64,000 bases of DNA from Gallionella sp. (GCA_023229845.1 JALNYK010000008.1:13781-77780), one strand, 5' to 3'. Shown: positions 35,009 to 56,000, counted from the first letter of the stretch. Program-made: numbers and translations. Notes: a model not told the origin generated them from the sequence alone.

Positions 35009-35796
35009 ATCGTAACCAGATCGTCCGGGATGTCGATGTCGGCAAATATCCCGTCGTCGCTGGTCTCGATATGCACGACACGAGAATTGTCGCGCTCCAG
35101 CCAGTGCCGTGCGCCGGCATCTCCCTGTAACGCCAGCAACTCTTCGCGATAATGGGCGGCGAACCCGACCGGATGGCCGCGCCTGCCTTCGCATGCCGGC
35201 GCTGCCAGGCCCGCTCCGCCCAACAGTGCATTACGCACGCTGGCTATGGCCGCCAAGGGCACGGCAGGCATATCGGCCAGCCCGATCAGCCAGCCTTCAG
35301 CGTCACGGTTCGCATGCACACCACATGCGAGGCTGTCCGCCATGCCGTCTGCGGCATCCTTGCAGACAACCCAGCGTATAGGCGCCGACTTGGCCGCACC
35401 CAGCGCTGTTTCGATCTCGTGGCAGAACGCTCCTGTGCCCGGCCTGACGACGACCGTGACCCGCCTGAATATCTCCAGCCACGGCTGCAGGCTGTGCGCG
35501 GCGAGCGGCAGCGTCACGCCATGCCTTGTGACCGGATGCCGCAACTTGTCCGAACCGAAGCGGCGCGAGGCCCCCGCAGCCAGCACGACCGCGGCGATTT
35601 CGTAACGAGCCCCTCTCCCGCTTGCGGGAGAGGGGGTGGAGAGAGGGATGTCAGCTATAAGGAGATCCAAGTTTCTACCCTCTCCCCAACCCTCCCCCTG
35701 GTGCGTGGTTGTTGCCGCTTCAGCGGCTTTACAACCACGGCCTCCTCCTTGCGGGGACAAGGGGGAGGGAGCAGAAAGCACGCTGACGTCAGACAA
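35005..35796 (-). CDS. MobA/MocA-like molybdenum-cofactor nucleotidyltransferase; N-terminus uncertain
   Basis: The conserved domain begins at AAVVLAAGASRRFGSDKL (about 35590). The only in-frame start upstream is TTG 35796, which overlaps the iorB stop. The intervening roughly 65 codons are repeat-derived (GEGWGEG, SPASGRG). Confidence 0.7.
   Translation of the reverse strand: MSDVSVLSAPSPLSPQGGGRGCKAAEAATTTHQGEGWGEGRNLDLLIADIPLSTPSPASGRGARYEIAAVVLAAGASRRFGSDKLRHPVTRHGVTLPLAAHSLQPWLEIFRRVTVVVRPGTGAFCHEIETALGAAKSAPIRWVVCKDAADGMADSLACGVHANRDAEGWLIGLADMPAVPLAAIASVRNALLGGAGLAAPACEGRRGHPVGFAAHYREELLALQGDAGARHWLERDNSRVVHIETSDDGIFADIDIPDDLVTI
35610..35770. repeat. Composite palindromic repeats of the CTCTCCCGCTTGCGGGAGAG / CCCTCTCCCCAACCCTCCCCC family
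   Basis: The first unit, 35610-35647, reads CCCCTCTCCCGCTTGCGGGAGAGGGGGTGGAGAGAGGG. The second, 35677-35770, is a nested palindrome: ACCCTCTCCCCAACCCTCCCCC...GTGGTTGTTGCCGCTTCAGCGGCTTTACAACCAC...GGGGACAAGGGGGAGGG. Confidence 0.8.
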
Positions 35797-37987
35797 GACT
35801 AGCCTGATCGAACGGCATGCGGCGCAGGCGCTTGCCGGTCAGCGCGAACACCGCGTTGGCGACCGCAGGCGCGATCGGCGGCGTGCCCGGTTCGCCTATG
35901 CCGCTGGGCGGCTCGCTGCTTTCCACGATATGCACCTCGACCTCGGGCATCTCGGAAAAGCGCAGCGGGGTGTATTTGTCGAAATTGGATTGCATCACGC
36001 GGCCGTTCTCCAGCGTGATCGCGCCGTGCAGCGCGGCGGAGAGACCGTAGACCATGCCGCCTTCGACCTGCTGGCGCACGCCATCCGGATTGACCACCAT
36101 GCCGCAATCCACCGCCGCCACCACGCGATGCACATGTATCTTGCCGTTCTGCAGCGACACCTCGGCGATCTGCGCGACATAGCTGTCGAACGACTTGTGC
36201 ACCGCCGCACCGTAAGCATGCCCCTTGGGCAATTTCTTCTTGCCCCAGCCGGCTTTCTGCGCGGCCAGTTGCAGCGCGCCGCGATAGCGGGAATCGGCAG
36301 GCAGGATGGAGAGCCGGTAAGCCACCGGATCTTTGCCGGCGAGATGCGCCAGTTCGTCCACCATAGTCTCGACGACGAACGCGGTATGCGAGTGCCCCAC
36401 CGAGCGCCACCACTGCACCGGCACCTGATTCTTCGGGCTGTGCAAATCGACCTGCAGGTTGGGGATCAGATAGGGCAGCGTAGCAGCGCCTTCCACCGAG
36501 GTGACATCGACGCCGTCCTTGATCATCATGGCCGAAAAAGGCGAGCCCTCCATGATGGACTGGCCGACGAGGGTGTGTTTCCACGCCACCGGTTTGCCGT
36601 CCTTCGCGATGCCCGCCTCGATATGGTCCGCCCACATCGGCCGGTAGTAGCCGCCGCGCATGTCGTCCTCGCGCGTCCACACTACCTTGACCGGTTTCGC
36701 CGTCTCATTCGTCGCCCTCATTGCCTTGGCCACCTGCGCCGCCTCGACGACGAAATCGGATTGCGGGTTGGCGCGCCGGCCAAAGCCGCCGCCGAGGAAA
36801 GTAGTGTGTATCTCCACCTGCTCCGGCTTGAGCCCGACGACCCTTGCCGCCATGTCGCGATCCACGGTCTGAAACTGGGTGCCGGTCCATATCTCGCAGT
36901 GGTCCGGCTTGAGGTCCACCACCACGTTGAGCGGCTCCATCGCGGCGTGCGCCAGATAAGGCACCTCGTATTCGGCGCTGACCGTCTTGTGCGCGTCCTT
37001 GATGCCCTGCGCCGCGTCGCCCTCCTTGCGCGCCACCGCGCCCGGCGTCTTCGCCAGCGCGAGATATTCCGCGCGCATCTTAGTCGTGGAGAGCGCCGCG
37101 CCCGGCCCCTCGTCCCATTCGATCTCCAGCAGGTCGCGCGCGATCTTCGCGGGCCAGAAGCCGTTCGCGGCCACCGCCACGCCGGTGGGCACCTGGTAAG
37201 CGCCCTGCACGCCGGCCACCTTCAGCGCCTCGGTCGCGTCGTAGCGCTTCACCTGACCACCGAACACCGGGCTGCGCGCGATCAGCACCGTCAGCATGCC
37301 GGGCAGGTGGACGTCGAGGCCGAACTGCGCCGTGCCGTTTATTTTCTCCGGCGTATCGAGACGTTTTGTCGACTTGCCGATCAGCTTGAAATCCTTGGGC
37401 TGCTTGAGTTCGACGTTGACCGGCAGCGGCAGCTTGGCCGCCGCATCGGCCAGCGCGCCGTAGCCCGACCGCCTGCCGCTAGGGACATGGATCACCTGGC
37501 CCGCCTCCGCGCGGCATTCGCTTTGCGGCACGCCCCATTGCAGCGCCGCGGCGCGGACCAGCATCATCCGCGCGCTGGCGCCCACGCGCCGCATCTGCTC
37601 CCACGACGAGGCAACACTGGTGCTGCCGCCGGTCATCTGGATGCCGAACGCGGTGTGGTTGTACACCGCCGCCACCGGAGCGGACTCGACACGGATACGG
37701 CTCCAGTCCGCCTCCAGCTCCTCCGCCACCAGCATCGGCAGCGAGGTGTAGACGCCCTGCCCCATCTCGGACTTGTTGACGAGGATGGTGATGCTGTCGT
37801 CCGGCGCGATGCGGATGAATGCGTTGGGCGGATACACCTGCTTGGCCAGCGCGGGCGATGCCTCCGCCGCGAAGGCGCGGTTGCCCTTCATCGGCAGATA
37901 GAAGCCGATCACCAGCCCGCCCATCAATGCGGCGGAGCCCTTGATGAATTCGCGGCGCGATGGATCTTGCACAATCATGTCGTTCAT
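35789..37987 (-). CDS. Molybdopterin-binding oxidoreductase large subunit (aldehyde oxidase/xanthine dehydrogenase family, IorB-like) with Tat signal
   Basis: Start at [28 protein letters not shown] (twin-Arg motif), with ATGA overlap with the 2Fe-2S subunit. 732 aa. Confidence 0.9.
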
Positions 37988-38457
37988 TTCGCGCCTCCCT
38001 GCATCTCCGCCGCGCGCTGTATCGCCGAGCGGATGCGGTTGTAAGTGCCGCAGCGGCAAAGGTTGCCGTCCATCGCGGCGGAAATCTGCGCCTCGCCGGG
38101 ATGCGGATGCTCCTTCAGCAACGCGGCGGCCGACATGATCTGGCCGGACTGGCAATAGCCGCACTGCGGCACATCCTCTTCCTGCCAGGCATCCTGCACC
38201 GTCTTGCCCAGCGCAGTCTCGGCCAGCCCCTCGATGGTGGTGACCTGCTTGCCGCTCGCCGCCGAAACCGGTGTCGAACAGGAACGCACCGCCTTGCCGT
38301 CCAGGTGCACGGTGCAGGCCCCGCACTGCGCGATGCCGCAGCCGAACTTCGTGCCGGTCAGTTGCAGATGGTCGCGTATCACCCAAAGCAAGGGCGTACT
38401 GGGATCGGCATCGACTCTGGCATCCTTGCCGTTGATCTTGAAAGAAATCATGAGCAC
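37984..38457 (-). CDS. (2Fe-2S)-binding small subunit of the molybdoenzyme (IorA-like)
   Basis: 157 aa. Contains [11 protein letters not shown] and [10 protein letters not shown]...CRCGTY cluster motifs. Confidence 0.92.
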
Positions 38458-38477
38458 CTCCTAAAAAACCGCAATTG

Positions 38478-38607
38478 GTCCACGAAAAACACGAAAGGCA
38501 CGAAATAAATCCATTGATTACCCGAATGCCGCGATTCAACCAGCGGGGGTCGTACACCCGGAAAGTGTTTTTGAATTCGTTCGTGTCTTTTCGTGATTTT
38601 CGTGGAC
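38478..38607. repeat. MITE-like CACGAAA-heptamer element (copy 2)
   Basis: The left arm is GTCCACGAAAAACACGAAAGGCACGAAAT. The right arm is ATTCGTTCGTGTCTTTTCGTGATTTTCGTGGAC. The element is 130 bp and overlaps the last roughly 24 codons of xdhC. Confidence 0.8.
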
Positions 38608-39543
38608 AGCCGAGTTGTTACGAACTGCAATCAAATGCGCGAGGATGGACACCGCGATCTCCGGCGGCGTGCGGCTGCCTATGCTCAGGCCCACCGGCCC
38701 GTGCAGCCGGGCGATCTCCTCCGGCGTGAGGTCGAACAGCGCCAGCCGCTCGCGGCGCTTCGCGTTGTTGACCTTGGAGCCCAGCGCGCCGACATAGAAC
38801 GCGGGCGTTTTCAGCGCCTCCAGCAGCGCCATGTCGTCCAGCTTGGGATCGTGCGAGAGCGCGACGATGGCGGTGCAACTGTCGACCTGCAGCGCCAGCA
38901 CCGCGTCGTCCGGCATCTCGCGGATGAACTCGGTGTTCGGCACATCCCAGGTCCGGCGCATCTCCTCGCCCGGCTCGCAGACGATGACCTGATAGTCCAG
39001 CGCCTGCGCCATGCGCGCGAGGTAGGCGGATGTCTGGCCCGCGCCGATAATCAGCAGCCGCCAGCGCGGGCCGTGCACCGTGGTCAGCGTCGCGCCGTCG
39101 AAGGCGAGGCTGTCGGCGCGAGTCGCGTCGTCCAGTTCCACATGCAAGGTATCCAGATGCAGCGTGCGCCTGACCATCTGGCCGGTCTGGATCAGTTGCA
39201 GCACCCGCCCCACCCAGCCCGCGTCGCGCACCGGCTCAACCACCAGCCGCATCGCGCCGCCGCAAGGCAAGCCGAAGCGCCGCGCCTCCTCGCGCGTCAG
39301 ACCGTAAGTCAGCTGCTCGTAACGGTCCAGCGGCAACTTTCCGTCCCGCGCCAGCCGCACCAGATCGTCCTCGATGCAGCCGCCCGACACCGAGCCCACC
39401 ACCAGCCCGTCAGCGCGCAACGCAAGCATCGCGCCCGGCGGACGCGGACTGGAACCGAAAGTCTCCACCACCGTCACCAGCCATTGCGTATCACCCTGCC
39501 ACTCGCGCAGGGTCTTGAGTACCGAAAGATCGACGCTATCCAT
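38536..39543 (-). CDS. XdhC-family molybdoenzyme maturation factor
   Basis: Start at MDSVDLSVLKTLREW. Contains SSPRPPGAMLALRADG..GSVSGGCIE and the Rossmann-like LLIIGAGQ. The C-terminal tail VHENHEKTRTNSKTLSGCTTPAG is read from the MITE-like repeat. Confidence 0.85.
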   Translation of the reverse strand: MDSVDLSVLKTLREWQGDTQWLVTVVETFGSSPRPPGAMLALRADGLVVGSVSGGCIEDDLVRLARDGKLPLDRYEQLTYGLTREEARRFGLPCGGAMRLVVEPVRDAGWVGRVLQLIQTGQMVRRTLHLDTLHVELDDATRADSLAFDGATLTTVHGPRWRLLIIGAGQTSAYLARMAQALDYQVIVCEPGEEMRRTWDVPNTEFIREMPDDAVLALQVDSCTAIVALSHDPKLDDMALLEALKTPAFYVGALGSKVNNAKRRERLALFDLTPEEIARLHGPVGLSIGSRTPPEIAVSILAHLIAVRNNSAVHENHEKTRTNSKTLSGCTTPAG

Positions 39544-39822
39544 TGCGCTGCCTCCATGGGTTCGTTCGGCTTCGGACGCACCGATGCGACGGCTGCCTGA
39601 AGGATGGCGCAACTTAACAAACTCGCGGACGCTTACCTATGGGGTGGATACCTACCCGAGGGGGATGGGAAAAGACGCATCGGACCAACGTCAGATGAAG
39701 ATATATGCCGAAATATCTATGTATTTCGGCATATTGTTCGGGTGGGGTGTATCGGGTATGGTGCGGCCTTCTCCGGCATTTTTCTTGTGTCTACTTAACA
39801 TTAGCCATTTCCGAACTCGAAT

Positions 39823-40776
39823 ATGAATCTCTTCATCGATACAAACGTTTTGCTCAACTTCTTTTACTTCTCCAAAGACAGTTTGGATGAGCTTGAGAAA
39901 GTCTTTGTACTCCAGAACTACGGGAAAATAAGTCTTTGGCTGACAGATCAAGTAGAGCTTGAGTTTTCCAGGAATCGTGAAACGAAGATCGCAGATGCAC
40001 TCAAGAAATTCCTCGATGAAAAGCCCAACTCAGGAATTCCTCATGTAGCACGAGGCTATCCTGAATCCGATCAATTGATGGAAGCCCTGAAACAAGTAAA
40101 TTCATCACGAGATCAACTGATGGTGAAAGTACGAAATGACATATCTAAAAAATCGCTCTATGCCGACAAACTAATTAAAGAGATATTTGCAAAGTCCACA
40201 CGGATTAAATTCACGGAAGATCAATTTACTGCGGCCAAAAGAAGATCCGACTTGCGAAGTCCCCCTGGAAAAAACAACTCCTTAGGCGATGCCATCAACT
40301 GGGAAGCGCTGCTAGAGGCTATTCCAGAAGGTCAGGATATTTATATTGTTTCTGAGGATGGAGACTTCACAAGCCCACTAGACACTGAGCGTCTTAGCGA
40401 TTTTTTGACGGAAGAATGGGCAAGCAAGAAGAAATCAAAGGCAATTCTCTACAAGAGACTGTCTCAGTTCCTGTCCCTAATGTTTCCTGATGCGAAGGTG
40501 GCAGCCGAACTAGAAAAGGACATCCTAATTGCGGAACTCGCTAGCAGCGGCTCCTTCGCCGCAACGCATCAGGCTGTTTCCGAACTAAATAAATTCGCCA
40601 GTTTTTCTCCGAAACAAGCTAGCGAAATCGCAGATGCCTACATAGTAAACTCCCAAGTCGGCTGGATTGCGACAGACGAGGACGTTCATGCCTTTGGCAA
40701 AAAGATTCAAGAAGCGCACAGCGCCACTCTTGATCCAACGCAGCAAAAGGCGTTTTTGGGTATTCTCACTAAATAA
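39823..40776 (+). CDS. PIN-like nuclease domain protein (DUF4935-type impression) with uncharacterised C-terminal domain
   Basis: 317 aa. MNLFIDTNVLLNFF (PIN Asp in DTN), then further acidic positions in QVELEF, GDAINWE and VSEDGDF. The last roughly 120 aa have no motif I recognise. 37% G+C in the hand-counted line 39841-39900. No obvious SD. Confidence 0.65.
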   Translation: MNLFIDTNVLLNFFYFSKDSLDELEKVFVLQNYGKISLWLTDQVELEFSRNRETKIADALKKFLDEKPNSGIPHVARGYPESDQLMEALKQVNSSRDQLMVKVRNDISKKSLYADKLIKEIFAKSTRIKFTEDQFTAAKRRSDLRSPPGKNNSLGDAINWEALLEAIPEGQDIYIVSEDGDFTSPLDTERLSDFLTEEWASKKKSKAILYKRLSQFLSLMFPDAKVAAELEKDILIAELASSGSFAATHQAVSELNKFASFSPKQASEIADAYIVNSQVGWIATDEDVHAFGKKIQEAHSATLDPTQQKAFLGILTK

Positions 40777-40861
40777 TCCCTGCACAATCCCGGATCTGCG
40801 CAAAAAGCCGCACAGGCCGATTACTTCTACATTAGGAACTGCACATCAAATTGCATTCAAC

Positions 40862-41401
40862 ATGGATAGCATACTTACATCATTGGGGTTAGCTACTGGT
40901 GGCGGGATACTCGCTGTTGTAGCCAAACATTTTTTCGACAATCCAATTCGAGAAATTGCCTTTAATCTTCCCTGGCTTAGAGTGAAGGCGAGTTCTCTCG
41001 CGGGCTACTGGCGCGCCGAATATGAATTCCAGGAGTGTGGAAAGAATGGCGTACATACATCGGTATCCGCACTCTATGAGCTAATCGAATGGCCTGGAAA
41101 TATCGTGCTCATTCGTGAGATACCTACCAACGGTGCTCCCGCCTCCATTGTGATTAAAGCAAAAAAGCGAAACAGCTACTTGAGTGGCTCCTATGAAAAT
41201 GCCGCTGCTCACGACACGCTGCACGGTGTATTTCAATTATGGCTACACCCCAAAGGCGAAGAAATGCGTGGGCATTTCTTAGGCTTTAGTGCTGAGGCTC
41301 CAAATTGCTTCAACACCGGCGAATGGCTGTGGTCGCGACTTACGACCGCCAGAACTGATGAGGCATTGGAGGAGGCAATAAAAAAGTTCGCTGAACATTG
41401 A
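40862..41401 (+). CDS. Hypothetical single-pass membrane protein
   Basis: 179 aa from the internal ATG of ORF 40667..41401. It has an N-terminal helix LGLATGGGILAVVAKHFF and a soluble domain of about 150 aa (GYWRAEYEF...LHGVFQLWLHPKGEEMRGHFLGF) that I do not recognise. It is on the same strand as the PIN-like gene, 85 nt downstream, and has similarly low GC. Confidence 0.5.
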   Translation: MDSILTSLGLATGGGILAVVAKHFFDNPIREIAFNLPWLRVKASSLAGYWRAEYEFQECGKNGVHTSVSALYELIEWPGNIVLIREIPTNGAPASIVIKAKKRNSYLSGSYENAAAHDTLHGVFQLWLHPKGEEMRGHFLGFSAEAPNCFNTGEWLWSRLTTARTDEALEEAIKKFAEH

Positions 41402-41489
41402 TGTGTTTGTTGAATCGCACCCCTAAGTTCTCCTCCGGCCCATTTGTACTATCATTCATGCGCAATCACAGCATGGGATGACACTAGCG

Positions 41490-41757
41490 ATGACACAGGA
41501 AATCAGCACCGAGGTATTGCTGGAAAAATACGCCGAGCCGGGCGAGAACTCGGTGGAGGACGTGCGCCGCCGCGTGGCGCGTGGGTTGGCGCAGGCCGAA
41601 GCGCCGGAGCAGCGCGCGCAGTGGGAAGAGAAGTTTTTCCTCGCGCAGGAAAACGGCTTCGTACCCGCCGGGCGCATCAACTCCGCCGCGGGGCTGGATA
41701 GCCAGGCAACGCTGATCAACTGCTTCGTGCAGCCGGTGGGCGATGCGATCTCCGGCG
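41490..41757 (+). pseudogene. 5' fragment (89 codons) of a class II ribonucleotide reductase gene (nrdJ'), diverged copy of 45065-45332
   Basis: [33 protein letters not shown]...[13 protein letters not shown], after which homology stops. About 21 mismatches in roughly 268 nt versus the intact gene by hand alignment, and 3 aa differences. Confidence 0.85.
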
Positions 41758-41779
41758 GCTTAATAATAGGGGACAGACC

Positions 41780-43115
41780 CTGAGGTTTCCCCTCAAATGA
41801 TCTTTCTTATTCAGTTTGTTACAGCTAAAGGCTGGCATGCATGACACCGATAACTCCTCCATCTCGGCGACCAAACGTCGAAGGAGGAAATGTCATGCAT
41901 GCCAAGGGGATTGTAGACGCAATGCTGGGGAATTGTCTTTCCGGCCTTCACGCGAAGTTGGCTGAATCCGTCAAAGCAGCGGTGTGCAGCGCATTGGTTG
42001 GTGGTCGTCTGAGTTTGAGCCAGCTTGCCCGTTCGGTAGATTCTCAGACGGCGATGCGCCATCGCATCAAACGTATCGACAGGCTGCTTGGGAACGAAGC
42101 GCTGCACGGAGAACGCGCGACGATTTACCACGAAGTCGCCGCGCAGTGGCTGAATGGAATCGAGCATCTGCTCGTGATCGTAGACTGGTCGGATGCAACG
42201 ACCGATCAACAGTGGCATTTGCTGCGTGCCAGCGTTTCGGTCGAAGGGCGCAGCATGACGCTGTATGAAGAAGTCCATCCGCAGCGCAAGTATGGAGACC
42301 GAGACGTGCATCGGCGATTTTTGACTCAATTGGCAAACCTGCTGCCTGAGGGCTGTATGCCCATCATCATGACCGATGCCGGGTTTCGCTCGACTTGGTT
42401 CGACTTGGTGACGAAGCGTGCTGGCAATGGGTGGGGCGAATCCGAGGAAAAGATATGGTCAGCATTGCGGGCGGCGCATGGAGACGATGTACGGATGTTT
42501 ACCAAGAGGCCACCTCGCGCGCGCGTCAGTTCGTCGATGCACATTACGTCCGCAGTCGTCCGACGAGCTGTCGGCTAGTGTTGGTCAAACGCGAAGCGAA
42601 AGGACGCACTCGTCGTACTCGCATGGGGAAGCGCTCCTGTTCCCATACCTCGCTCAAAGCCGCACGTGGTAGCCGTGAGCCATGGCTGCTGGCTTGTTCG
42701 CCGGGGCTTGCCCATCTGACTCCGGAGTCGGTTGTTTCTCTCTACGCACAAAGAATGCGAATCGAGCAATCGTTCCGCGATATCAAGAATGAGCGGCTTG
42801 GTTTTGGTTTGACCTCTTCGCGTTCGCGTACGGGTAAACGGTTGGAGATACTGCTGCTGATCGGGTACTTGGCCGGGTGGCTTATGCGGCTAATTGGGGA
42901 GTGCGCGCAACAGTGTCAGATGCAACTTCAATTCCAAAGCGTCGCACATCTCGACCACAAGGAAATCTCTGTGCTCACGTTGGCGCGCAGGGTCATTGAT
43001 GCGGGGGCTCCATGGCTGAAACGTCTTCGTCCAAAAGACTCATTCATCCTTTTGCGCCAACAAGCTCGGGAGGCCTGCCATGGAATGTGATGTTAAATTT
43101 GAGGGGAAACCTCAG
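41780..43115 (+). mobile_element. IS4-family, IS10-like insertion sequence (1336 bp) with 9-bp target-site duplication
   Basis: Perfect 19-bp terminal IRs CTGAGGTTTCCCCTCAAAT (compare IS10 CTGATGAATCCCCTAATGA). Flanked by direct repeats GGACAGACC at 41771-41779 and 43116-43124. Confidence 0.9.
41895..43090 (+). pseudogene. IS10-like DDE transposase, split by one frameshift near 42410-42425
   Basis: Frame 1 reads ...HRIKRIDRLLGNE...VIVDWSD...IIMTDAGFRSTWFDLVTKR. Frame 2 reads CWQWVGRIRGK...EPWLLAC...SLYAQRMRIEQSFRDIKN (YREK motif). Together they are colinear with IS10 transposase as I recall it. Confidence 0.85.
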
Positions 43116-43209
43116 GGACAGACCACGGTTTCCCTAGCCCACGTAGAGCGCACTCGGGCAATGCGCCGTATGCATCCCTCCCAACATCCGGCGCTCTATT
43201 GAATCGCCA

Positions 43210-43500
43210 TCACGCCGCCAGCAATTCCACCTTCAACTTCTTCCCCAGCACCGCTGCCGCGCTCGCCAGCGTGGTCAGTGTCAGGCTGGTGTTGTTCTCG
43301 TCCAGCAGGCGGTTCAATGAGGCGCGGCTGGTGTGCATTTTCTTCGCCATCGTGGTCTTGTTCAGGTTCTGTACTTTCATCTCCTGCTCGATCTGCCATG
43401 CGATGAAAGCGATCATTTCTACTTGGCGCTGACACCCCAAAGCCGGATTCGCGCGAAGACGGCAAAAGGGGCGCGAAGCATCAAGGTAGTCGGCGGACAT
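43210..43500 (-). CDS. XRE-family HTH antitoxin-like protein (orphan)
   Basis: 96 aa from MSADYLDAS. HTH segment LNKTTMAKKMHTSRASLNRLL and a C-terminus TLASAAAVLGKKLKVELLAA typical of HigA/HTH_37-like antitoxins. The start could instead be at 43416. Confidence 0.55.
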   Translation of the reverse strand: MSADYLDASRPFCRLRANPALGCQRQVEMIAFIAWQIEQEMKVQNLNKTTMAKKMHTSRASLNRLLDENNTSLTLTTLASAAAVLGKKLKVELLAA

Positions 43501-43709
43501 AGCCGCCAGACCGCAGAAATACAGCACGAAGCCCATCTGAAAAGCTGGCTGCCATACCCACCGTACCGCATAAATACGGCATCAAGCGAAGTGTTTTCTC
43601 GTCGTCGTGAAGCTATTGTAACTTCGCCGCATCCAGTCTACGCCGCGGTCTCGCACTCGCGGCCATCATCACGCCGCACTTCGCATAATTTATTGCAAGG
43701 AGAAATAAA

Positions 43710-44795
43710 ATGAAAACAAAGTTTAATTTTAAAGCAGCATTAATTTCAGTTGCACTTCTGGGCGGATCAATAACTTCAGGCGCGGTGTATTCAAGCCCTT
43801 TCCCTTTGCTCAAAGCCAACGGCGTTAGCACGGCCCAAGATGCCACCGACTATTACCGCACCATCGACCCCCCGGTTGCCGGACACCCGAACGGCCTAAG
43901 ATATACCCAGGCAGAATGGAGAGAAGTTAATGGCTTTAATGATCCCGCGAATGAAATCGTTGTGGTGGGGGGACACAAAAACGTCTCTGATCTCGGCTTC
44001 TGGCGAAGAATTGAGATGGTCATTGACAAGCGTTGGGGGAAAAGGAGGAACGTCGCGTTTACCACCTACAACTTCGAGTTCGAATCTGACACGACAGACG
44101 TAAAAAAAGCAAAGTCCATCGTGAATATGGAATACTCCCCTGGCCCGAATGGTGACCGTATCACCAAGTTCTACATCTACAATCCCGATGGTACACGCAA
44201 GGCCGATACTTTCTTTGATCCTGACGGCATTAACGACCTGACCAAGCAAGATAACCTGAACTTGCCAAACGGTTGCGCTGCCTGCCATGGTGGAGGGGAA
44301 GACTTTAGAGCCCATAGTGGTAAGACCGACGGCGGATTCCTTGCGTTTGACTTCAACGTTTTCGAGTACGGCACGCTGACATCCCGTGCAGCTAATGAAC
44401 CCAATGTGAAGAAGCTTAATCAAGGGGTGCTGATGACAGATCCGCCCAGCGCCGTAAAGAATCTGATATATGGACTCTACGGTGGCAAATCCCTGCCGTT
44501 GGCCACGCAAAACTCGGATTACATGCCGAGCGACTGGGCCACAGAGCCAGCACTCTGGAAGGTCGTCGTGACGGATTGCCTGGGCTGCCATACCCTGTCC
44601 GAATCGTCAGTGCTGAACCTCAATTACTGGAAGCTCCACGTCGGGTCGCTCCGTGAGCAACTTTTCGAATATCGACTCATGCCAAACTCGCCTTATGCAA
44701 ACAGACGTTTCTGGAATATGGACCCTAATCAGCCGCCTACTACGCCGGCCCATAGTGATACCGTAAGAGATGCACTCAAACGCTTCCGCCCTTGA
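43710..44795 (+). CDS. Secreted protein with two CxxCH haem-c motifs (putative dihaem c-type cytochrome, family unknown)
   Basis: 361 aa. AAGGAG RBS, signal peptide MKTKFNFKAALISVALLGGSITSGAVYS, and CAACH (about residue 200) and CLGCH (about residue 290). Confidence 0.6.
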   Translation: MKTKFNFKAALISVALLGGSITSGAVYSSPFPLLKANGVSTAQDATDYYRTIDPPVAGHPNGLRYTQAEWREVNGFNDPANEIVVVGGHKNVSDLGFWRRIEMVIDKRWGKRRNVAFTTYNFEFESDTTDVKKAKSIVNMEYSPGPNGDRITKFYIYNPDGTRKADTFFDPDGINDLTKQDNLNLPNGCAACHGGGEDFRAHSGKTDGGFLAFDFNVFEYGTLTSRAANEPNVKKLNQGVLMTDPPSAVKNLIYGLYGGKSLPLATQNSDYMPSDWATEPALWKVVVTDCLGCHTLSESSVLNLNYWKLHVGSLREQLFEYRLMPNSPYANRRFWNMDPNQPPTTPAHSDTVRDALKRFRP

Positions 44796-44850
44796 TCAGC
44801 AATCTGAATTAGTCACTGTCCATAACTCGGCTCTGCGCCACGTGCCACTA

Positions 44851-44888
44851 AACAGGCGGCTGCTCCGGCAGCCGCCTGTTTTCTTTAT
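44851..44888 (+). terminator. Rho-independent terminator after the dihaem protein gene
   Basis: AACAGGCGGCTGCtccgGCAGCCGCCTGTTTTCTTTAT, a 13-bp perfect stem plus a T-rich tail. Confidence 0.85.
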
Positions 44889-45064
44889 AGTTGCTCAACC
44901 GAGTATTCATGCGATGCAACTCCACCTTCAGCTTTCTTCTCCAGCCCACGTAGGCACTACCCCCCGGCAGGCTGATTGTCTTCCACAAGCCCTGAACTTG
45001 TCCTCTGACCGTTTCCTGTTTGTACTATCATTCATCGCAATAACTGCACGGGATGGAATCAGCG

Positions 45065-47965
45065 ATGACACAGGAAATCAGCACCGAAGTTTTGCTGGAA
45101 AAATACGCCGAGCCGGGCGAGCACTCGGTCGAGGATGTGCGCCGCCGCGTGGCGCGCGGGCTGGCGCAGGCGGAGAAGCCGGAGCAGCGCACGCAGTGGG
45201 AGGAGAAATTCTTCCTCGCGCAGGAGAACGGCTTCGTGCCCGCCGGGCGCATCAACTCCGCCGCGGGGCTGGACAGCCAGGCGACGCTGATCAACTGTTT
45301 CGTGCAGCCGGTGGGCGACGCGATCTCCGGCGTCGTCGACGGCAAGCCCGGCATCTACGACGCGCTGCAGCAGGCCGCCGAGACCATGCGGCGCGGCGGC
45401 GGCGTGGGCTACGACTTCTCGGCGATCCGTCCCGAGGGCGCGCATGTGAAAGGCACCAACTCGCGCGCCAGCGGCCCGATCTCCTACATGCGCGTGTTCG
45501 ACCGCTCCTGCGAGACGGTGGAATCCGCCGGTGCGCGGCGCGGCGCGCAGATGGGCGTGCTGCGCTGCGACCATCCCGACATCGAAAAATTCATCGGCGC
45601 CAAGGACAAGGGCGACCTGCGCAACTTCAACATCTCCGTCGGCGTGACCGACGCGCTGATGCGGGCGGTGGAGAAGGACGAGGAATTCGAGCTGGTGCAT
45701 GCCGCCGAACCCGCCGCCGCGTTCAAGGAACAGGGTGCTTCCCGCCGCGCCGACGGCAAGTGGATCTACCGCAAGGTGCGCGCCGTCGAGCTGTGGAAGC
45801 AGATCATCGCCAGCACCTACGACCACGCCGAACCGGGCGTGCTGTTCATCGACCTGATGAACCGCGACAACAACCTGTCGTATTGCGAGGTGATCGAAGC
45901 GACCAACCCCTGCGCCGAGCAACCCCTGCCCGCCTACGGCTGCTGCTGCTTAGGCTCGATCAACCTGACGCGCATGGTGAAGAATCCATTCTCGGTGCAT
46001 GCCGGCTTCGACTACGAACCGTTCAAACAACTGGTGCGCACCTCAGTGCGCATGCTGGACAACGTGCTGGACGTGAGCGCGTGGCCGCTGCCGGAACAGC
46101 AGCAGGAGGCGCAGAGCAAGCGCCGCATCGGCCTGGGCTACACCGGGCTGGGCGATGCGCTGGCGATGCTGGGGCTGCGCTACGACACCGACGCGGCGCG
46201 CGCCTTCGCCGCCGACATCACCCGCATCATGCGCGACGAGGCCTATTCCGCCTCGGTGGAACTGGCGCAGGAGCGCGGCGCGTTCCCGCTGCTGGATGCG
46301 GAGCAATATCTCGCCGCACCGCGCTTCGCCTCGCGCCTGCCGGACGAGCTGAAGGACAAGATACGGCGGCACGGCATACGCAACAGCCATCTGCTGTCCA
46401 TCGCGCCCACCGGCACCATCTCGCTGGCCTTCGCCGACAACGCCTCCAACGGCATCGAGCCGGCGTTTTCCTGGTACTACACGCGCAAGAAACGCATGCC
46501 GGACGGCACGACCAAGGACTACCAGGTCGAGGACCATGCCTGGCGGTTGTACAAGAAACAGGGCGGCGACACAGAGCATCTGCCGCCCGCCTTCGTCTCC
46601 GCGCTGGACATCTCCGCGATCGACCACATGAAGATGGTCGCCGCGGTCGCGCCGTTTATCGACACCTCGATCAGCAAGACGGTGAACGTGCCCGCCGATT
46701 ATCCCTACGAGGATTTCAAGGACCTCTACACCGAGGCATGGAAAGCCGGACTCAAGGGGCTGGCGACCTATCGGCCCAACAGTGTGCTGGGCTCGGTGCT
46801 GTCGGTCACGCCGGAACCGAAGACAGACGAACAGCCGCAGGATTTCGTGTTCGACCAAGATCGGCGCATCGAGCTGGAAGCCACGCCCACGCCGGCGCTG
46901 GCCTCCTTGCGCTGGCCGGGCCGGCCGAAGCTGTCCGCAGGCAGCGAGGGCTGGGTGTCGCAGGTGGTCAAGCATCCGCTCGGCAGCTTCGTCGCGTTCG
47001 TGTCGCATACCACAAACCGCCCTCTCCCCAACCCTCTCCCGCAAGCGGGCGAGGGGGCAAACGAATCGCTGCGCGACTCTTCAACTCTGGGCCACAACCA
47101 TCCGTTCGAAGTATGGGTGAACGGCTCCGAGCAGCCGCGCGGACTCGGCGCGCTGGCGAAGTCGCTGTCGATGGACATGCGCACGCGCGACCCGGTGTGG
47201 ATACGCATGAAGCTGGAGATGCTGACCAAGACCGCGGGCGACGACGCCTTCGACATGGCTATGCCACCGGACGGTGAAATGAAGCGCATGCCCAGCCTGG
47301 TCGCCGCGTTCGCGCACCTGCTGAAATACCGCATCGAGGCGCTGGGCGCGCTGGAGATCACCGAGGGCGTGACCACGCCGATGATGGACGCGCTGTTCGC
47401 GAAGAAGGAACCCAAGACCGGCACCGACGGCACGATGAGCTGGACCGTGGATATCGCCAACGCCGGAACCGGCGACGACTTCGTGCTGGGCCTGAAGGAA
47501 CTGGTGCTGCCCGACGGACAGCGCCGCCCCTATTCGATGTGGCTGTCCGGCGTGTATCCGCGCTCGCTCGACGGGCTGTGCAAGGTGCTGAGCCTGGACA
47601 TGCGCGTGATCGACCCGGCGTGGATAGGCATGAAACTGCGCAAGCTGCTGAACTTCGGCGAACCGCTGGGCGACTTCATGGCGCGCGTGCCGGGCGGGAT
47701 GAAGATGGAGAGCTACCCCTCGACCGTCTCCTACGTCGCCAAGCTCATCATCCACCGCTACGCGATGCTCGGCATCCTCGACGAACAAGGCTACCCGGTG
47801 CAGCAGATGGGCGTGCTGGAGATCCCCGAAGGCCAGATCAAGCCGACCACGATCACCAAGCCGCTGACCGGCAAGCTGTGCAAGGAATGCGGCAACGCGA
47901 CATTGATAAAAAAGGATGGGTGCGAGTTCTGCACCAGTTGCGGGGCGATAGGGGCGTGCGGCTGA
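45065..47965 (+). CDS. nrdJ: Adenosylcobalamin-dependent (class II) ribonucleoside-diphosphate reductase
   Basis: 966 aa from MTQEIS. Contains [21 protein letters not shown] (active-site region), SISKTVNVP and a C-terminal Cys cluster CKECGN...CEFCTSCG. Confidence 0.95.
47017..47063. repeat. CCCTCTCCCCAACCCTCTCCCGCAAGCGGGCGAGGGGG repeat lying in-frame inside nrdJ
   Basis: Same family as 10343-10390 and 35610-35770. Translated as [15 protein letters not shown]. Confidence 0.8.
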
Positions 47966-49220: not shown

Positions 49221-52200
49221 CTAAACTAGGATATTCCCCGCCGTCAGCTGAACGATGTTCACCCCAGACAGGACCACCAGCGCCGTTTCCATGCCGTTAG
49301 CCGCCAGGTCGGTCGAGTGGTACACCGTCACCGCGTTGCCGTTGGCCGAGTCGGCGATCACGATGTAGCCATCCGTAGCGATCACGGACACGTCGGCCGC
49401 AATCGCATTCGCCGCATCGGCAATCGCCACCGGCGTGGCGTCGAAGATGAAGACGTTGGCGGCGACGAAATCGGTCGTCAGGGTCTGGCCGGTCGCGACG
49501 GAATCGGTCAGGTTGGCGATGGCGGACAAGTCCAGCACGTCGCCGCCGTTCGCGACCGGCGCGGCGCTGAAACCGAGGACGGTGTCGGTTCCGTCTGCAA
49601 TCGAAGTCAGCAGGATCGTCGCGGAGCCGGCCGCGGTCGCGTCGGCGATGACGATCTGGTCTGCGCCCGCGCCGCCGGCGATGAGGTCGGCCCCGCCGTT
49701 GCCATAGAGCACGTCGCCGGCCGCCGTGCCGTTCAGGATGTCGGTTGCGATGCTGCCGGTGACAATAGCGCCCGTTCCCAATGGCGTGACTTCTGCGGTG
49801 CTGAAACCGGGAATCGCCGAGAGCGACGCGGCGGCATCCGTCAGCAGCGCGGTCTTGGCGTCGTTGGACAGCACGTAACCGTCGGCAAACACCAGCCGGT
49901 CGTTCGATGCGCCCGTCGCCGCTGCAACAATTACCGTCTCGCCGCTCGTCGCGTTGGTGAAGGTGATCTTGGAAGTGGTCGCCGCCTTGCTGTAGTCGGC
50001 CCAGTTGCCGGTGAGGTAGATCTTGTCTTCGCCGCTGTTCAGTTTGGAGGCGTCCACCGTCGCGCCCGCCTTGACGTAGACGATATCTACGCCGTTGCCG
50101 CCGGTCGCGATGAAGTTGATCCCCGGCGAGGTGCCGGTGAACACTTCCCCGGTCGTATCCAGCGCGAAGCCCTTGACGGTGGCGTTCAGCGTGGTCGGCT
50201 GCGCCGGCGCCGCGCCCAGCGTCGGGATCGAGCCGCCCGATGCCCAGCCATGCAGGTCGAACGTGCTGGCCGCGCCATTCGCGAACACCACGGTGTCGTA
50301 ATTGAGCGACGTGCCCTTGGCCAGCAACACCGTCTCGGCGCTCGCGCCGGTTCCGCGCGTCAACGTCACCGTGGAGGTGGTGACGCTCGTCGCGTAATCC
50401 GCCAGGTTGCCCGTCAGATAGATGTTGTCGATGCCGCCATTGCTCTTGGTAAAGTCGAATTTTATGCCGGGCATCAGGGAAACATTGTCGATGCCGTTGG
50501 TGCCGGTGAATACGATGTACTGCCCTTGTAACGACATCGCTCCGCGCGCCAGATCAAAATGCGTCAAGTTGTCGCCTGGAGACTGCGTGACGAAATATTT
50601 CGATGATGGCGGAGCAGATATGCTGATGCCGCTGCTGGCCACGGATTCGACAGTGCCATGGGCATCGACATAGCCGGCAACTACGCTGACCGCCTTGCCG
50701 ATATCGGCTTGCGTCGGAATGTAAGTGCTATTGGTCGCGCCAGCGATGGCGACGCCGTCTGCAAGCCATTGATAGCCTATGGCACCCAGCCCATCGGCAT
50801 CGGCCAGGGTGTTGGAGGCGGTCAGCGTGTAGCCCCGGAAGGCGGCTCCCGCAATGGATACACTGCCCGTCGGCAGGCTGTTTATAAAAATCTGATCCCC
50901 ATACAAAGAGAAGTCGCTCGCCGAGAACGTACCCGCGAGTTGCACCTGCACGTCCGCGCCCGCCACGGCATCGGTGCCGATAAACAACGACGTCGTTCCC
51001 GCAGAGGATGCGCACTGGACCTGATTGGCCAACACAGCGCCGCCGTTGCCCGCCGCGACGCTTCCGGAGAATGCCGCACCCGCGATGCTGATGCTGTCTC
51101 CCGCCGCAAGATCGGCAATCGTGTCGAGACCGTTTCCGCTGGCAGCAAAGGCAAACACGTCGTTCCCGCCGCCTCCGGTGAAGATGTTGTTGTTCGAATT
51201 GCCGGTCAGGACGTTGTCCAGCGTATTCCCGGTGCCGTCGATCACAGCGGTGCCGGACAGGGTGAGGTTCTCAACGTTGTCGCTCAGCGCATAGGAGACC
51301 GAACTGATCACATGGTCGGTGCCTTCGTTGGCCAGCTCGGTGACTTGTTCGCCAAGGTAACTTCCTGGCATGTTATAGCGAACTGATCCATACAACATTG
51401 GGTCGAGGGGATACCCATTTAAAGAGAAAGTTGCAGACAGGCTCCTGAGAACAGGCTCCGCACCCGAATAGTCTATGTTGATGGAGTCGATAGAGAAGCT
51501 GCCGGAAAGTTCAGTACCATAACCTAGGCCATTCATGCTGTAAGCAAGGCCTGGATGCCCAAAATTGGCGAAGGACGCAAATTCTGCGTTAAGGTAAGTC
51601 CCTGGGGCAAGGTTAGCTCCCAACTGATCGGTTGCTAAAGTCAAATTAAAAAAGTCAGTTGTGCTTAAGTAGTAGAAACTAAGATAGTCGACAGATCCAT
51701 CGTTATTCTGATCAAGGAGCTGGTTAACCATCCAGTTCCCTGTTGCCAGGGTGAAAGTGAAAGACTTGTCTCCAGTCCACCCCAATCCCTTTAAAAGGCC
51801 ATTCTCGACACCATGTACATTCAAAAATGCCACTGGAACCATGGCATCTACTATATAGGTGTCATTTCCGCCCCCACCCAAAAACCAGTCCGTACCTCCT
51901 CCTCCGATCAGCGTGTCGTTCCCCGCACCACCGCTCAAGGTGTCGTTGCCATCCCCTCCGTCCAGTACGTTATCTGCCGCATTTCCGGAGAGGATGTTGT
52001 CGAGCGCATTCCCCGTGCCATCGATCGCAGTACCCGTCAACGTCAAATTCTCGACATTCGCTCCGAGGGTATAAGTGATTGCACTTTGGACGGTATCGAT
52101 GCCCTGCTCTGCTAATTCAACAACCGAATCGCCCAGCACATCGACGACATAGGTGTCGTTGCCCAAGCCGCCCGACATGCTGTCGCTGCCCAGCCCGCCG

Positions 52201-52856
52201 TCCAGCAGATTGGCGGCATCGTTGCCGGTCAGCACATTGCCGAGCGCGTTGCCGGTGCCGTCGATCGCTGTCGTTCCGGCCAAGATCAGGTTTTCGATGT
52301 TGGCGCCCAGCGTGTAGCCAACCGAACTCTGAACGGTATCGCTACCTTCATTCAGGTTCTCGGTTACGACATCGCCCGCGTTATCGACGACATAGATATC
52401 GTCTCCAACTCCGCCCACCAGCGTGTCAGCGCCTATACCACCGTCAACGATGTCGTTCCCAGCATAGCTCCATAACACGTCGTTATAGCTGCTGCCGGTG
52501 AAAGTATCGTTACCGGCAAAGAAGTAGGCGACGAGTCCGACAGCATCGTTGTTAAGCGCATAGGATTCATAGACGCCGCCGGGAATACTCAATCCGGAAA
52601 TGGAGTCTTGCACCACCCAGCTCAGATCGTATGTGGTGATGCCGGTCAGCGTGCTGTCGGGCCAGGACAGGTATTGATAACCACCGGAGTAGGTGTAACT
52701 GAAAGAGCCGTAGTAATCAGCATAACCAAGGATCGAATCGCTCAACTGGACCAGCGACGGCCCCATAGACAGCACAGACGACGTTCCTCCCCCCGAGTCC
52801 ACGCCGACCGCAGCCGGTGAATTGTCTGAAAAAACGTAGGTTATGTAAGTCGCCAT
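49221..52856 (-). CDS. Large RTX-type (GGxGxD nonapeptide repeat) secreted protein, probable T1SS substrate
   Basis: 1211 aa with no signal peptide. Multiple [15 protein letters not shown]-type repeats. The C-terminal roughly 460 aa are about 90% identical to the protein at 53084..56362. Confidence 0.85.
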
Positions 52857-53083: not shown

Positions 53084-56000
53084 TCAGACCAGCATATTCC
53101 CCGCCGTCAGCTGCGCGATGGCCACCCCGGACAGGACCACCAGCGCCGTTTCCGTGCCGTTAGCCGCCAAATCTGTCGAGTGGTACACCGTCACCGCATT
53201 GCCGTTGGCCGAGTCGGCGATCACGATGTAGCCATCCGTAGCGATCACGGACACGTCAGCCGCAATCGCGTTCGCCGCATCGGCAATCGCCACCGGCGTG
53301 GCGTCGAAGATGAAGACGTTGGCGGCAGCGAAGTCGGTCGTCAGTGTCTGGCCGGTCGCGACGGCATCGGTCAGGTTGGCGATGGCGGACAAGTCCAGCA
53401 CATCGCCGCCGTTCGCAACCGGCGCGGCGCTGAAACCGATGACGGCGTCGATTCCGTCTGTAATTGAAGTCAGCAGGATCGTCGCGGAGTTGGCGGCGGT
53501 CGTGCCGGTATCGGTGATGACGATGGTGTCGGCGCCTGCGCCGCCGTTGATAGCGTCGGCTCCGCCGTTGCCGTAGATCACCTCGCCGGCCGCCGTGCCG
53601 TTCAGGATGTCGGTTGCAACAGTGCCGGTGACGATAGCGCCCGTTCCCAATGGCGTGACTTCTGCGGTGCTGAAACCGGGAATCGCCGAGAGCGGCGCGG
53701 CGGCATCCGCCAGCAGCGCGGTCTTGGCGTCGTTGGACAGCACGTAACCGTCTGCGAACACCAGCCGGTCGTTGGATGCGCCCGCCGCTGCCGCGACGAT
53801 CACCGAGTCTCCGGTCGTCGCATTGGTAAAGGTGATCTTGGAGGTGGTCGCCGCCTTGGTGTAGTCCGCCCAGTTGGCGGTGAAGTAGATCTTGTCTTCG
53901 CCGCTGTTCAGCTTCGAGGCATCCACCGTCGCCCCCGCCTTGACGTAGACGATGTCCACGCCATTGCCGCCCGTCGCGATGAAGTTGATCCCCGGTGCGG
54001 TGCCGGTGAACACTTCCCCGGTCGCATCCAGCGCGAAGCCCTTGACGGTGGCGTTCAGCGTGGTCGGCGGTACCAGCGCCGCAGCCAGCGTCGGGATCGC
54101 GCCGCCCGCCGCCCAGCCGTGCAGGTCGAACGTGCTGGCCGAGCCATTCGCGAACGCCACGGTGTCGTAATTGAGCGACGTGCCTTTGGCCAACAGCACT
54201 GTCTCGGCATTTACGCCCGCTCCGCGCGTCAGCGTCACCGTGGAGGTGGTGACGCTCGTCGCGTAATCCGCCAGGTTGCCCGTCAGGTAGATGTTGTCGA
54301 TGCCGCCATTGCTCTTCGTAAAATCGACGACCACTCCGGGAGCAGCGGTCACGTTGTCTACACCGTTTGTGCCGGTGAATACAATGTTCTGCCCTTGAAG
54401 CGATGACGTGCCATAGGCCAGGTCAAAATCCAGCAGGTTGGAGCCCGGCGACTGGGTGACGAAGTATTTTGAACTCGCAATGAATGAATAAATGTTGAGA
54501 CTATTGCTGGCAACCGATTCAAAAGCACCAAAACCGTCGGTGTAGCTGGCAACCACGCTGATAGCCTTGCCGACCTCGGCTTGAGTCAGGGTGTAAATGT
54601 TACTGGTTGCACCTGTGATGTCGATGCCGTTGGCTTGCCACTGGTAAGCGATCGTACCGAGGCCGTCGGCATCGGCCAGGTTGTTGCTGGCGGTCAGGAT
54701 CTGGCTCAGGGTGGGAGTGCCGCTGATGGTCACGCTACCTGTCGGCAGACTATTGAAAAACAGCCAGTTTCCGTTCAGCGAAAAGTTGGATGACGCATAA
54801 CTGCCTGTCAGTTGAATCTGGACATCTGCGCCAGCTATCGCATCGGTTCCGATGTACAGCGTTGTCAGGCTGGCTGAATTAAACAGCTCGACCTGATTGG
54901 CCAGAATACTCGCCCCGTTCCCGCTCGATATGGCGCCCGTAAAACTGCAGCCCGTTATATCGATCCGGTCGCCCGACGAACAATCGGAAATCGTATCGAT
55001 TCCATTTCCGCTTGCACCGAACAGGAATACATCGTTTCCGCCGTTTCCGACCAGCGTGTCATTGCCGGACGCACCACCGATGGTATTGCCCTCAGCGCTC
55101 CCCGTCAGAATGCGGCCAGCCGTGCCATAAGCGTATAAGTTCTCGACATTAAGAAGGCTGGCTAGACTGTAATTGAAATTTGCCCAGATCGAATCAATGC
55201 CTTCGGCGCTGTATTCGACGACAGTATCGTTTATCGTGTTCAGATAGTAAGCATCGTTGCCCGCGCCGCCATACAGCGCATCGTTCCCTGCCCCGCCGTC
55301 CAGGGAATTGGCCGCATCGTTGCCGATCAATGTGTCGTTGCCGGAGCCGCCAGCCGCGTTCTCGATAATCGCGCCATAGGCAATGCCCAGATTGTTCGTG
55401 CCGTCGTAAGTCGGCGCATAGCCGGGCGCCGTCGCCCCTGCCGGAAGCGGATCAGACAGGATGCGGATGCTCGAATAGCTTCCGGGAGTGAGATCGATCC
55501 GGCAGTTCTCCGAAAAATTGCCGACGTCTATCGTATCGTTGCCGCCGGCGTCCCAAATCGTTTTTAGGAATGGCAGAGCGGGATCGAAAGTGTAAACGTC
55601 ATCCCCTGTCCGATAAGTCAGGTTCGCGCCATAGAGATGCTGGATGGCGGCGATATCCAGGACCATCGGGGTCTCTGGCGCTATCGCCCCCGTGCTCCAT
55701 GAAAAAGACACATCCGTGATTTGCGTGATCGTTCCAAAGAGATTGTTGGCCGGGTCGGTGTAGGACATCACCGTTTGTTGACGGTTGTCGAGTGCGACCG
55801 GAAGTTGCGACAGGCCTTCAAAAGGATGCTTTAACCCTAATGAGTGTCCGACTTCATGGATCAAAGAGAAATAGTTATGCGATCCTGCAGACCAGTCTGC
55901 ATCTGTCGCCCCGCCTTGAAGGGTGCTTATCCAGACATCTCCGGAACTTGGGAGCGCCTGATTTAACGTATAACTCCAACCCCATGCCTGCGACCCGGCA

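Follow-up and report, generated by a model that had tools for sequence, protein, structure and literature searches.

Integrative elements that restore the end of the gene into which they insert, such as e14 and phage 21 at icd, leave a diverged, mostly synonymous duplicate of that gene end as a direct repeat, and they have an integrase beside the attachment (att) site, a short identical core, a true empty site and a recurrent target. Here we analyse a duplicate of similar appearance in a stretch of 64,000 nucleotides from Gallionella sp. (GCA_023229845.1 JALNYK010000008.1:13781-77780), hereafter the window, in which positions are counted from the first letter. In it, the leader and the first 89 codons of nrdJ, which encodes a class II ribonucleotide reductase, are found twice, once at the intact gene and once as a fragment, nrdJ', beside an insertion sequence (IS) of the IS4 family. 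The diverged gene-end repeat is common to this locus and to e14 and phage 21 at icd, but none of the other attributes was found here. With a probability of about two in three, the left leader and nrdJ codons 1-89 are the orphaned end of a second, diverged haplotype of the interval between geneB, a conserved hypothetical gene, and nrdJ, which would have been joined to the other haplotype by additive, one-sided recombination.

Incoming linear DNA is documented to be integrated by homology-facilitated illegitimate recombination and also by circularisation with a subsequent single crossover, and homology-facilitated illegitimate or single-crossover integration is known from Acinetobacter, S. pneumoniae, P. 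stutzeri and E. coli (PMC3240628). The locus in the window resembles these systems in that DNA would have been added via one homologous anchor and one illegitimate joint, with no element recombinase and with a partial, diverged duplicate of the anchor as the outcome. It differs from them in that an IS tip, absent from the classical description, lies at the joint, and in that the process is read from its end product alone.

Displacement arrays with orphaned gene ends have been described at type VI secretion system (T6SS) and Rhs loci (PMC5361080). As in the arrays of Rhs, contact-dependent inhibition and T6SS loci, an incoming module anchored in a conserved gene would push the old module aside and orphan fragments together with their old neighbours, and the scar recurs at one hot spot (nrdJ' in the window, and fragments named below HTH' and geneB' in the related loci L087 and L092, respectively). 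Unlike in those arrays, it is the 5' end of a housekeeping reductase gene with its promoter region, and not the 3' tip of a toxin gene, that has been orphaned; moreover, one orphan per genome was found here instead of an array, and no selective benefit, such as a retained immunity, is evident.

A diverged copy of the nrdJ 5' end

A repeat scan of the window detected a direct repeat of 297 nt with 91% identity (41461-41757 and 45036-45332), which BLAST widened to 315 nt with 90.8% identity and a single 1-nt gap (41443-41757 and 45019-45332). Alignment with MAFFT traced a gapped and fading similarity of the leaders back to ca. 41420 and 44990, and located a sharp end of homology past ...GATCTCCGGCG, at 41757 and 45332. 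The leader 16-mer TTTGTACTATCATTCA is present exactly twice in the window, at 41443 and 45019, the expectation from shuffled sequence being 0.13 matches with up to 3 mismatches. Over the 89 codons that the copies share (41490-41756 and 45065-45331) there are 21 nucleotide differences, 17 synonymous and 4 non-synonymous, which result in 3 amino-acid changes; the synonymous divergence (dS) is 0.34, the non-synonymous divergence (dN) 0.020 and dN/dS 0.06. The original prediction had described, from a hand alignment, direct copies of the leader and codons 1-89 with about 21 mismatches, almost all of them synonymous and changing 3 amino acids, and an abrupt end of homology, and the formal alignment and the dN/dS calculation that it called for bear out each of these points.

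Under neutrality ca. 76% of the changes would be expected to be non-synonymous, and finding 4 or fewer among 21 has a binomial probability of 4.4e-8. We compared the same 267 nt with L087, the nrdJ locus of another Gallionella sp. (GCA_049304375.1) that was reached by a search with the cytochrome-like protein encoded upstream of nrdJ. The left copy differs from L087 at 21 positions (dS 0.36) and the right copy at 10 (dS 0.16), and sites unique to the left copy, the right copy and L087 number 16, 5 and 5, respectively (P=0.027). Thirteen of the 16 sites unique to the left copy are synonymous and 3 are non-synonymous (P=1.8e-6), and this copy has neither indels nor stops across the 89 codons. 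The divergence of the left copy therefore arose under purifying selection, while this copy belonged to a working gene of another lineage, and not by local decay, as had been proposed. Since a pseudogene older than the split between the window lineage and L087 would hold many non-synonymous changes, the fragment was functional until recently. Its source lineage is distinct from the supplier of the resident nrdJ; because the fragment is preceded by the leader, which the related locus L001 does not have, that source lies within the same sub-clade. At present, nrdJ' is most likely a non-functional relic.

Gene order between geneB and nrdJ

The related loci available for comparison, ca. 85 in number, comprised 80 nrdJ loci of GTDB species representatives together with L084-L087 and L092, with 10 kb on either side. 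The nearest nrdJ loci among the GTDB representatives are those of Gallionellaceae, and none of 23 Gallionellaceae representatives has the nrdJ leader. The order serB, geneB, nrdJ is found in L001, L011 and L023; in L001 geneB and nrdJ are so close that the stop codon of the one and the ATG of the other overlap. In the window, ca. 10 kb separates geneB (34388-35008) from nrdJ (45065), and the following features occupy this interval and its borders.

34388-35008, plus strand: geneB, encoding a conserved hypothetical protein of 206 aa; left edge of the variable interval
35005-39612, minus strand: operon of the xanthine dehydrogenase (xdh) family, with a MobA-like NTP_transf_3 protein, a MoCoBD subunit, a Fer2 subunit and XdhC; GC ca. 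0.65
39803-41419, plus strand: low-GC block (0.40-0.50) found only in the window genome, in the same slot as HNH_2 and three small open reading frames (ORFs) in L087
39823-40776, plus strand: gene of a PIN_12 protein, in the low-GC block
40862-41401, plus strand: ORF179, in the low-GC block
41420-41489, plus strand: left copy of the nrdJ leader, with the invariant TTTGTACTATCATTCA at 41443-41458
41490-41757, plus strand: nrdJ', codons 1-89 of a diverged nrdJ allele; Ribonuc_red_lgN, 39 bits (cut-off 28)
41758-41765: 8 nt, GCTTAATA, separating the end of nrdJ homology from the left tip of the IS
41766-43132, plus strand: IS4-family insertion sequence, transposase at 41895-43090
43137-43200: dispersed repeat resembling repetitive extragenic palindromes (REP-like; CACGTAGAGCGCACTCGGGCAATGCGCCGTATGC...), where homology to L087 restarts
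43210-43536, minus strand: gene with a Cro/C1-type helix-turn-helix (HTH), matching HTH_37 weakly, without a toxin partner
43710-44795, plus strand: gene of a 361-aa exported protein of a dihaem cytochrome c-like family, with two CxxCH motifs
44850-44881, plus strand: hairpin resembling an intrinsic terminator, with 14 pairs and a T run, 3' of the cytochrome gene
44990-45064, plus strand: right copy of the nrdJ leader, preceding the functional gene
45065-47965, plus strand: intact nrdJ, class II adenosylcobalamin-dependent ribonucleotide reductase of 966 aa; its codons 1-89 are the right repeat

The product of the full gene is recognised as NrdJ by the TIGR02504 equivalog model (610 bits, cut-off 400) and matches Ribonuc_red_lgC with 438 bits. 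The frame of nrdJ' stays open up to a stop at 41781-41783, so that a 97-aa ORF results, and for annotation purposes 41490-41783 is best described as an nrdJ pseudogene fragment and 41766-43132 as a defective IS4-family element. As to what lies between the two copies, the HTH ORF (described as an orphan antitoxin), the di-CxxCH protein and the lack of an integrase were correctly foreseen, but the element that had been called IS10-like belongs to the IS4 family and is not IS10 proper.

Identity between L087 and the window is 93% over the xdh genes and 95% over nrdJ. In L087, MoCoBD, Fer2 and XdhC are followed by a slot with a 92-aa ORF, HNH_2, a 161-aa ORF and a 99-aa ORF. Past the slot are HTH, a small toxin-antitoxin (TA)-like pair and the cytochrome gene, and then the same leader, an nrdJ that contains an intein, and LpxR; there is a single nrdJ start and no fragment. 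The xdh operon, common to both at 92-94% nucleotide identity, is missing from the gap between geneB and nrdJ in L001. In L092, a 5' remnant of the HTH gene precedes the cytochrome gene, behind which come a REP-like repeat, the leader and the nrdJ start; the nrdJ fragment is missing here too. The cytochrome gene directly upstream of the leader and nrdJ is thus found in L087 (79% amino-acid identity) and in L092 (77%) too; cytochrome homologues of L086, L088 and L091 are in unrelated contexts. Homology between the window and L087 breaks after 39802 and restarts at ca. 43150, right after the IS, so that the break brackets the PIN gene, ORF179, nrdJ' and the IS.

Since the cytochrome gene, the leader and nrdJ stand together in both L087 and L092, and in L087 with the HTH gene as well, the genes between the two copies are resident neighbours of nrdJ. 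The DNA specific to the window genome is instead 39803-41757 plus the IS, which reverses the earlier picture of which DNA is accessory. The comparison with a sister genome thus shows that a diverged gene-end direct repeat does not by itself mark an integrative island.

The IS4-family element and the joint

The element is like other IS4-family insertion sequences in its DDE transposase of the NF033591 type, in its terminal inverted repeats, and in that other copies and a miniature derivative are found in related metagenomes. Its transposase reaches 293 bits with NF033591 (transpos_IS4_2, cut-off 152) once one G is restored after 42419, where a 1-nt deletion shifts the frame, and Pfam DDE_Tnp_1 matches the C-terminal ORF. 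A 95%-identical copy in run X3 has this G. The core of the inverted repeats (41771-41798 and 43097-43124) is 28 nt long and 89% complementary. The plasmid database yielded one weak match of 149 nt, annotated as an IS4-family transposase.

The right tip is set at 43132 by a diverged relative in L086, in which the right-end 30-mer is conserved and beyond which the sequences differ, as well as by other flanks in runs X1 and X2 that depart at the same base. The left tip is placed at ca. 41766, since from there on the sequence is identical in a second context, found in X1, X2 and X3. With the tips so taken, the flanks GGCTTAATA and CCTAGCCCA are unrelated, and there is therefore no target-site duplication. 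The 9-mer GGACAGACC, at 41771-41779 and 43116-43124, was considered as an intact target duplication, which would have cleared the IS of a role; it was rejected as internal to the IS termini, because the L086 element shares a 30-nt right end that includes the 9-mer and 8 nt beyond it, and because the other flanks in X1, X2 and X3 begin at 41766 and after 43132.

The nrdJ homology ends 8 nt from the left tip of the IS. A truncated gene that abuts an IS without target duplication points to an IS-associated rearrangement, and it is from this position that the involvement of the IS is suggested. Alternatively, the joint may have arisen from a break at the tip of the IS. The locus shares with IS-associated deletions a truncated gene on one flank and the lack of a target duplication; it is unlike them in that 8 nt lie between the truncated gene and the tip and in that the transposase is frameshifted.

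A miniature derivative of the IS is present in run X10, where 41799 is joined to 43105, so that it consists of the left end, GCCTT and the right end, 1305 nt being missing. The IS family has therefore produced offspring resembling miniature inverted-repeat transposable elements (MITEs).

A recombination history for the locus

The interval upstream of nrdJ is probably a recombination hot spot in this Gallionella clade, with geneB, the xdh operon, the HTH gene, the cytochrome gene and leader-nrdJ as conserved anchors and variable inserts between them. One haplotype, from an unsampled lineage, would have carried PIN-ORF179 directly before leader-nrdJ, and the other HTH-cytochrome before leader-nrdJ, as in L087 and L092. 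DNA of one of them would have entered a cell with the other and been added without replacing its counterpart: one end by homologous recombination in a conserved anchor, the other by illegitimate joining at or beside the left tip of the IS4-family element. The route could have been homology-facilitated illegitimate recombination, repair of a break at the IS tip, or circularisation with a single crossover, and the product would be PIN-ORF179-leader-nrdJ'(1-89), the IS, and HTH-cytochrome-leader-nrdJ. We infer this mechanism from its end product in a natural population. The retention of an anchor-gene fragment next to non-homologous DNA is seen in nrdJ' itself, which is separated by a dS of 0.34-0.36 from both the resident copy and L087.

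The addition may have taken place in either of two directions, which are equivalent in structure. In the first, the DNA from xdh to PIN, ORF179, the leader and nrdJ' would be incoming, anchored on the xdh side and with its tail joined at the tip of a resident IS; we consider this possible, at somewhat less than an even chance. In the second, which we find rather more doubtful, the DNA from the IS through HTH, the cytochrome gene, the leader and nrdJ would be incoming, anchored in nrdJ and with its head joined to codon 89 of the resident nrdJ. We lean slightly towards the first, since breakage in the recipient would naturally occur at the tip of a resident IS. The second direction is the homologous insertion, with incoming DNA that carries its own nrdJ 5' end, which the original prediction had offered as an alternative to a site-specific one. 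Identity to L087 is 92-94% on the left, xdh side (dS 0.19-0.27) and 95-98% on the right, nrdJ/LpxR side (dS 0.08-0.19). This step in identity was tried as a marker of an import tract and discarded, the scatter from block to block being too large.

Other loci of the clade carry comparable scars. In L087, two diverged copies of the 3' part of the HTH gene (6230-6575 and 7526-7830) surround a TA-like insert of 1 kb that holds a 49-aa ORF and an antitoxin of the dnstrm_HI1420 type, and the positional orthologue of the window HTH gene has become a pseudogene, ca. 80 nt having been lost internally. L092 has a full geneB (1011-1646) and, past an insert of four genes (two HD-GYP genes, a CBS gene and a GerE gene), a 3' fragment of geneB (114 nt, 88% identical, within 5870-6276) that is fused to a 3' remnant of the MobA-like gene exactly as at the geneB/MobA junction of the window; the remnant is a leftover of the xdh haplotype. 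HTH' in L087, geneB' in L092 and nrdJ' in the window together indicate that the interval repeatedly gains blocks while keeping the orphaned ends of conserved genes. A stronger version, in which the geneB-nrdJ interval is a dedicated stacking hot spot to which blocks are regularly added independently of any recombinase, each orphaning the end of a conserved gene, appears improbable to us; if it were true, the interval would be the counterpart, at a housekeeping gene, of the displacement arrays of Rhs/T6SS loci, and breaks at IS4 or REP-like elements might be what sets off the additions.

Several points weigh against the proposed history. The predicted arrangement PIN-ORF179-leader-full nrdJ was found in no genome or contig by protein, contig and run searches. 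The search with the 89-aa fragment protein returned only short N-terminal pieces of up to 92% identity and no donor allele, and its top matches, P0001 and P0003, are ordinary nrdJ genes behind SCO1/SenC, P0003 being split by a frameshift. Nine homologues of ORF179 were found, which reach at most 70% identity if one that corresponds to part of the window protein itself is set aside; they are in unrelated contexts, one of them beside TniQ/TniB genes and none beside nrdJ or a PIN gene. The exact leader pattern (TTTGTACTATCATTCAT N0-1 CGCAAT) had no match in JGI metagenome contigs, although it is too strict, as L087 differs from it at the last T. In the run index the left copy is held by X1 and X2 only, and the contigs of these runs show neither a strain with a full-length nrdJ of the left type nor an IS-free joint.

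On the side of the joint, the left tip of the IS is imprecise, being somewhere in 41758-41769, and the IS could be a later insertion beside an older joint, should its subfamily make no target duplications. The three-taxon topology is weak, with 5, 3 and 2 informative sites when L001 is the outgroup, and the identities to L087 do not decide between the two directions of import, since constraint varies from gene to gene and divergence within nrdJ ranges from 0.4 to 10.5% among blocks of 89 codons. Lastly, the 12 nt before the nrdJ ATG (within 41472-41489 and 45047-45064) exist in two forms, GACACTAGCG in the left copy and L087, and GGAATCAGCG in the right copy and L092; the lineages themselves are therefore mosaic. 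This patch cuts across the overall similarity, which indicates fine-scale recombination or selection at the ribosome-binding region. The lineages that share the nrdJ leader recombine with one another.

The feature is best read as an ordinary relic of inter-lineage recombination beside a defective IS, rather than as one border of a novel mobile element, and it calls for neither a new mechanism nor a new function. It is a clear example from nature of how an orphaned gene end can preserve the record of recombination between diverged lineages, here of uncultured iron-oxidising bacteria.

Alternative explanations

Among the other explanations, the one that survives best, which we nevertheless consider unlikely, is that a complete second nrdJ, either an acquired allele with PIN-ORF179 upstream or a long-kept paralogue, was once present in the slot and has recently been cut short through the IS4 element, either an adjacent deletion promoted by the IS or a recombination between two ISs having removed the DNA from codon 90 to the end of the gene and up to the HTH flank. 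A fragment that ends 8 nt from the IS tip with no target duplication is the usual scar of an IS-associated deletion, the 89 intact codons with their very low dN/dS agree with a recent inactivation, and a redundant copy can be lost at no cost. However, the 8 nt between nrdJ' and the tip would not be expected from an adjacent deletion made by the transposase, two nrdJ genes are found in neither L087 nor L092 nor any other locus, and more steps are needed than with a single one-sided recombination. This explanation overlaps with the one that we favour where the left block is the incoming one.

Far less probable is the reading put forward in the original prediction, namely that a site-specific island (HTH-cytochrome, with the IS arriving later) entered the 5' end of nrdJ with a replacement leader and 89 codons, displacing the resident 5' end leftward, and later lost its integrase. 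Direct repeats of 315 nt of the end of the target gene, 90.8% identical, are indeed present at both borders, integrative elements that restore a gene end do leave direct repeats with mostly synonymous differences, and the DNA between the repeats has a GC of 0.50-0.57, below that of the flanks. Against it, the right-hand genes of the supposed island are syntenic in L087 and L092 (HTH-cytochrome-leader-nrdJ in the former, cytochrome-leader-nrdJ in the latter) without a displaced fragment. When these two loci are taken as the empty site that was to be looked for, they already hold the cytochrome gene and the leader before a single nrdJ start, and they lack nothing but the IS. The low-GC DNA peculiar to the window genome is situated beyond the limits of the proposed island, left of the left repeat. 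A second nrdJ start was found in none of the ca. 85 related loci, so that codon 89 of nrdJ is not a recurrent integration target. No integrase, resolvase or excisionase domain was detected with Pfam among the ORFs of 38.5-49.1 kb and selected long ORFs of 30-35 and 49-62 kb, where the IS4 DDE transposase is the sole transposition protein. The absence of a recombinase gene had been correctly stated, but its explanation as a loss, with att sites, is not supported, since homology ends 8 nt from the IS4 tip and not at a shared att core.

A local tandem duplication of the nrdJ 5' region, with the upstream copy decaying and later insertions between the copies, would account for direct repeats only 3.6 kb apart, but it is refuted by the substitution pattern, as decay predicts ca. 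76% non-synonymous changes and the observed counts are 4 of 21 for all differences (P=4e-8) and 3 of 16 for those of the left branch (P=2e-6), as a dS of 0.34 equals or exceeds the distance to L087 (0.16) and yet the 89 codons have no indels or stops, and as the duplication is absent in L087 and L092.

That the nrdJ regions of two strains were joined at shared sequence by the assembler or in binning might be thought of, given that the source is a metagenome-assembled genome and that L082, an independent contig, breaks off 425 nt inside nrdJ, at a place where repeats may interrupt an assembly, but a chimera is hardly credible in view of the same order in three independent assemblies, with 99.99-100% identity (GCA_023231145.1, ENA ERZ27249449 and Logan SRR6484324). 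Unitigs of two groundwater metagenomes, dated 2018 and 2022, moreover cross each junction at uniform, single-copy depth: from XdhC to nrdJ' (38650-41698), from nrdJ' to the IS (41715-41795) and from the IS to the right copy (43103-45145).

Other features of the locus

The Rfam search gave no family match over 39600-45400, the sigma-70 scan gave no promoter in either nrdJ leader, and, judged by eye, the leader 17-mer agrees poorly with the NrdR-box consensus. The 361-aa di-CxxCH protein has no Pfam match, and PADLOC gave only weak matches, to the PIN and HTH proteins.

The REP-like repeat (CACGTAGRGCGCACT...CGGGCARTGCGCCGTATGC), which has an internal hairpin, recurs about the HTH gene, in front of the leader and at other places, with copies in the window (43137-43200, 44936-44950 and 18752-18835), in L087 (6585-6650 and 7520-7560) and in L092 (7819-7908). 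Several homology breakpoints of the locus coincide with it. In the conserved region upstream of XdhC, ca. 90 nt before the left edge of the variable slot, there is a perfect 9-bp inverted repeat, GCCGAAATA tctatg TATTTCGGC, at 39690-39713, whose version in L087 has compensating changes (GCCGGAATA...TATTTCGGC).

The intact nrdJ carries an in-frame insertion of 23 aa at 47021-47090 that derives from a dispersed, GC-rich palindromic repeat with related copies in the window (35610-35694 and 10314-10377) and in L087 (3576-3641). As the insertion is present in L087 and not in L001, a REP- or MITE-like element has apparently been absorbed into an essential coding sequence. The nrdJ genes of L087 and L084 contain an intein with Intein_splicing and LAGLIDADG domains, and the window gene has no such insert. 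In L087 the intein insert is ca. 1.1 kb long (10271-11406) and lies at the site that matches 45910-45914 of the window; at the same site, L002, L006, L007, L010 and L022 have inserts of 1.1-1.3 kb, which are candidate inteins.

Farther away, a toxin-antitoxin pair (Unstab_antitox and ParE_toxin) is located at 32533-33176, in a patch of lower GC just upstream of serB. Two adjacent giant genes with RTX repeats, one of them with a serralysin-like M10 peptidase domain, are found on the minus strand at 49221-52856 and 53084-56362; they have in common a 3' segment with 93% identity over 396 nt, and both copies match the end of L087 at ca. 91%.

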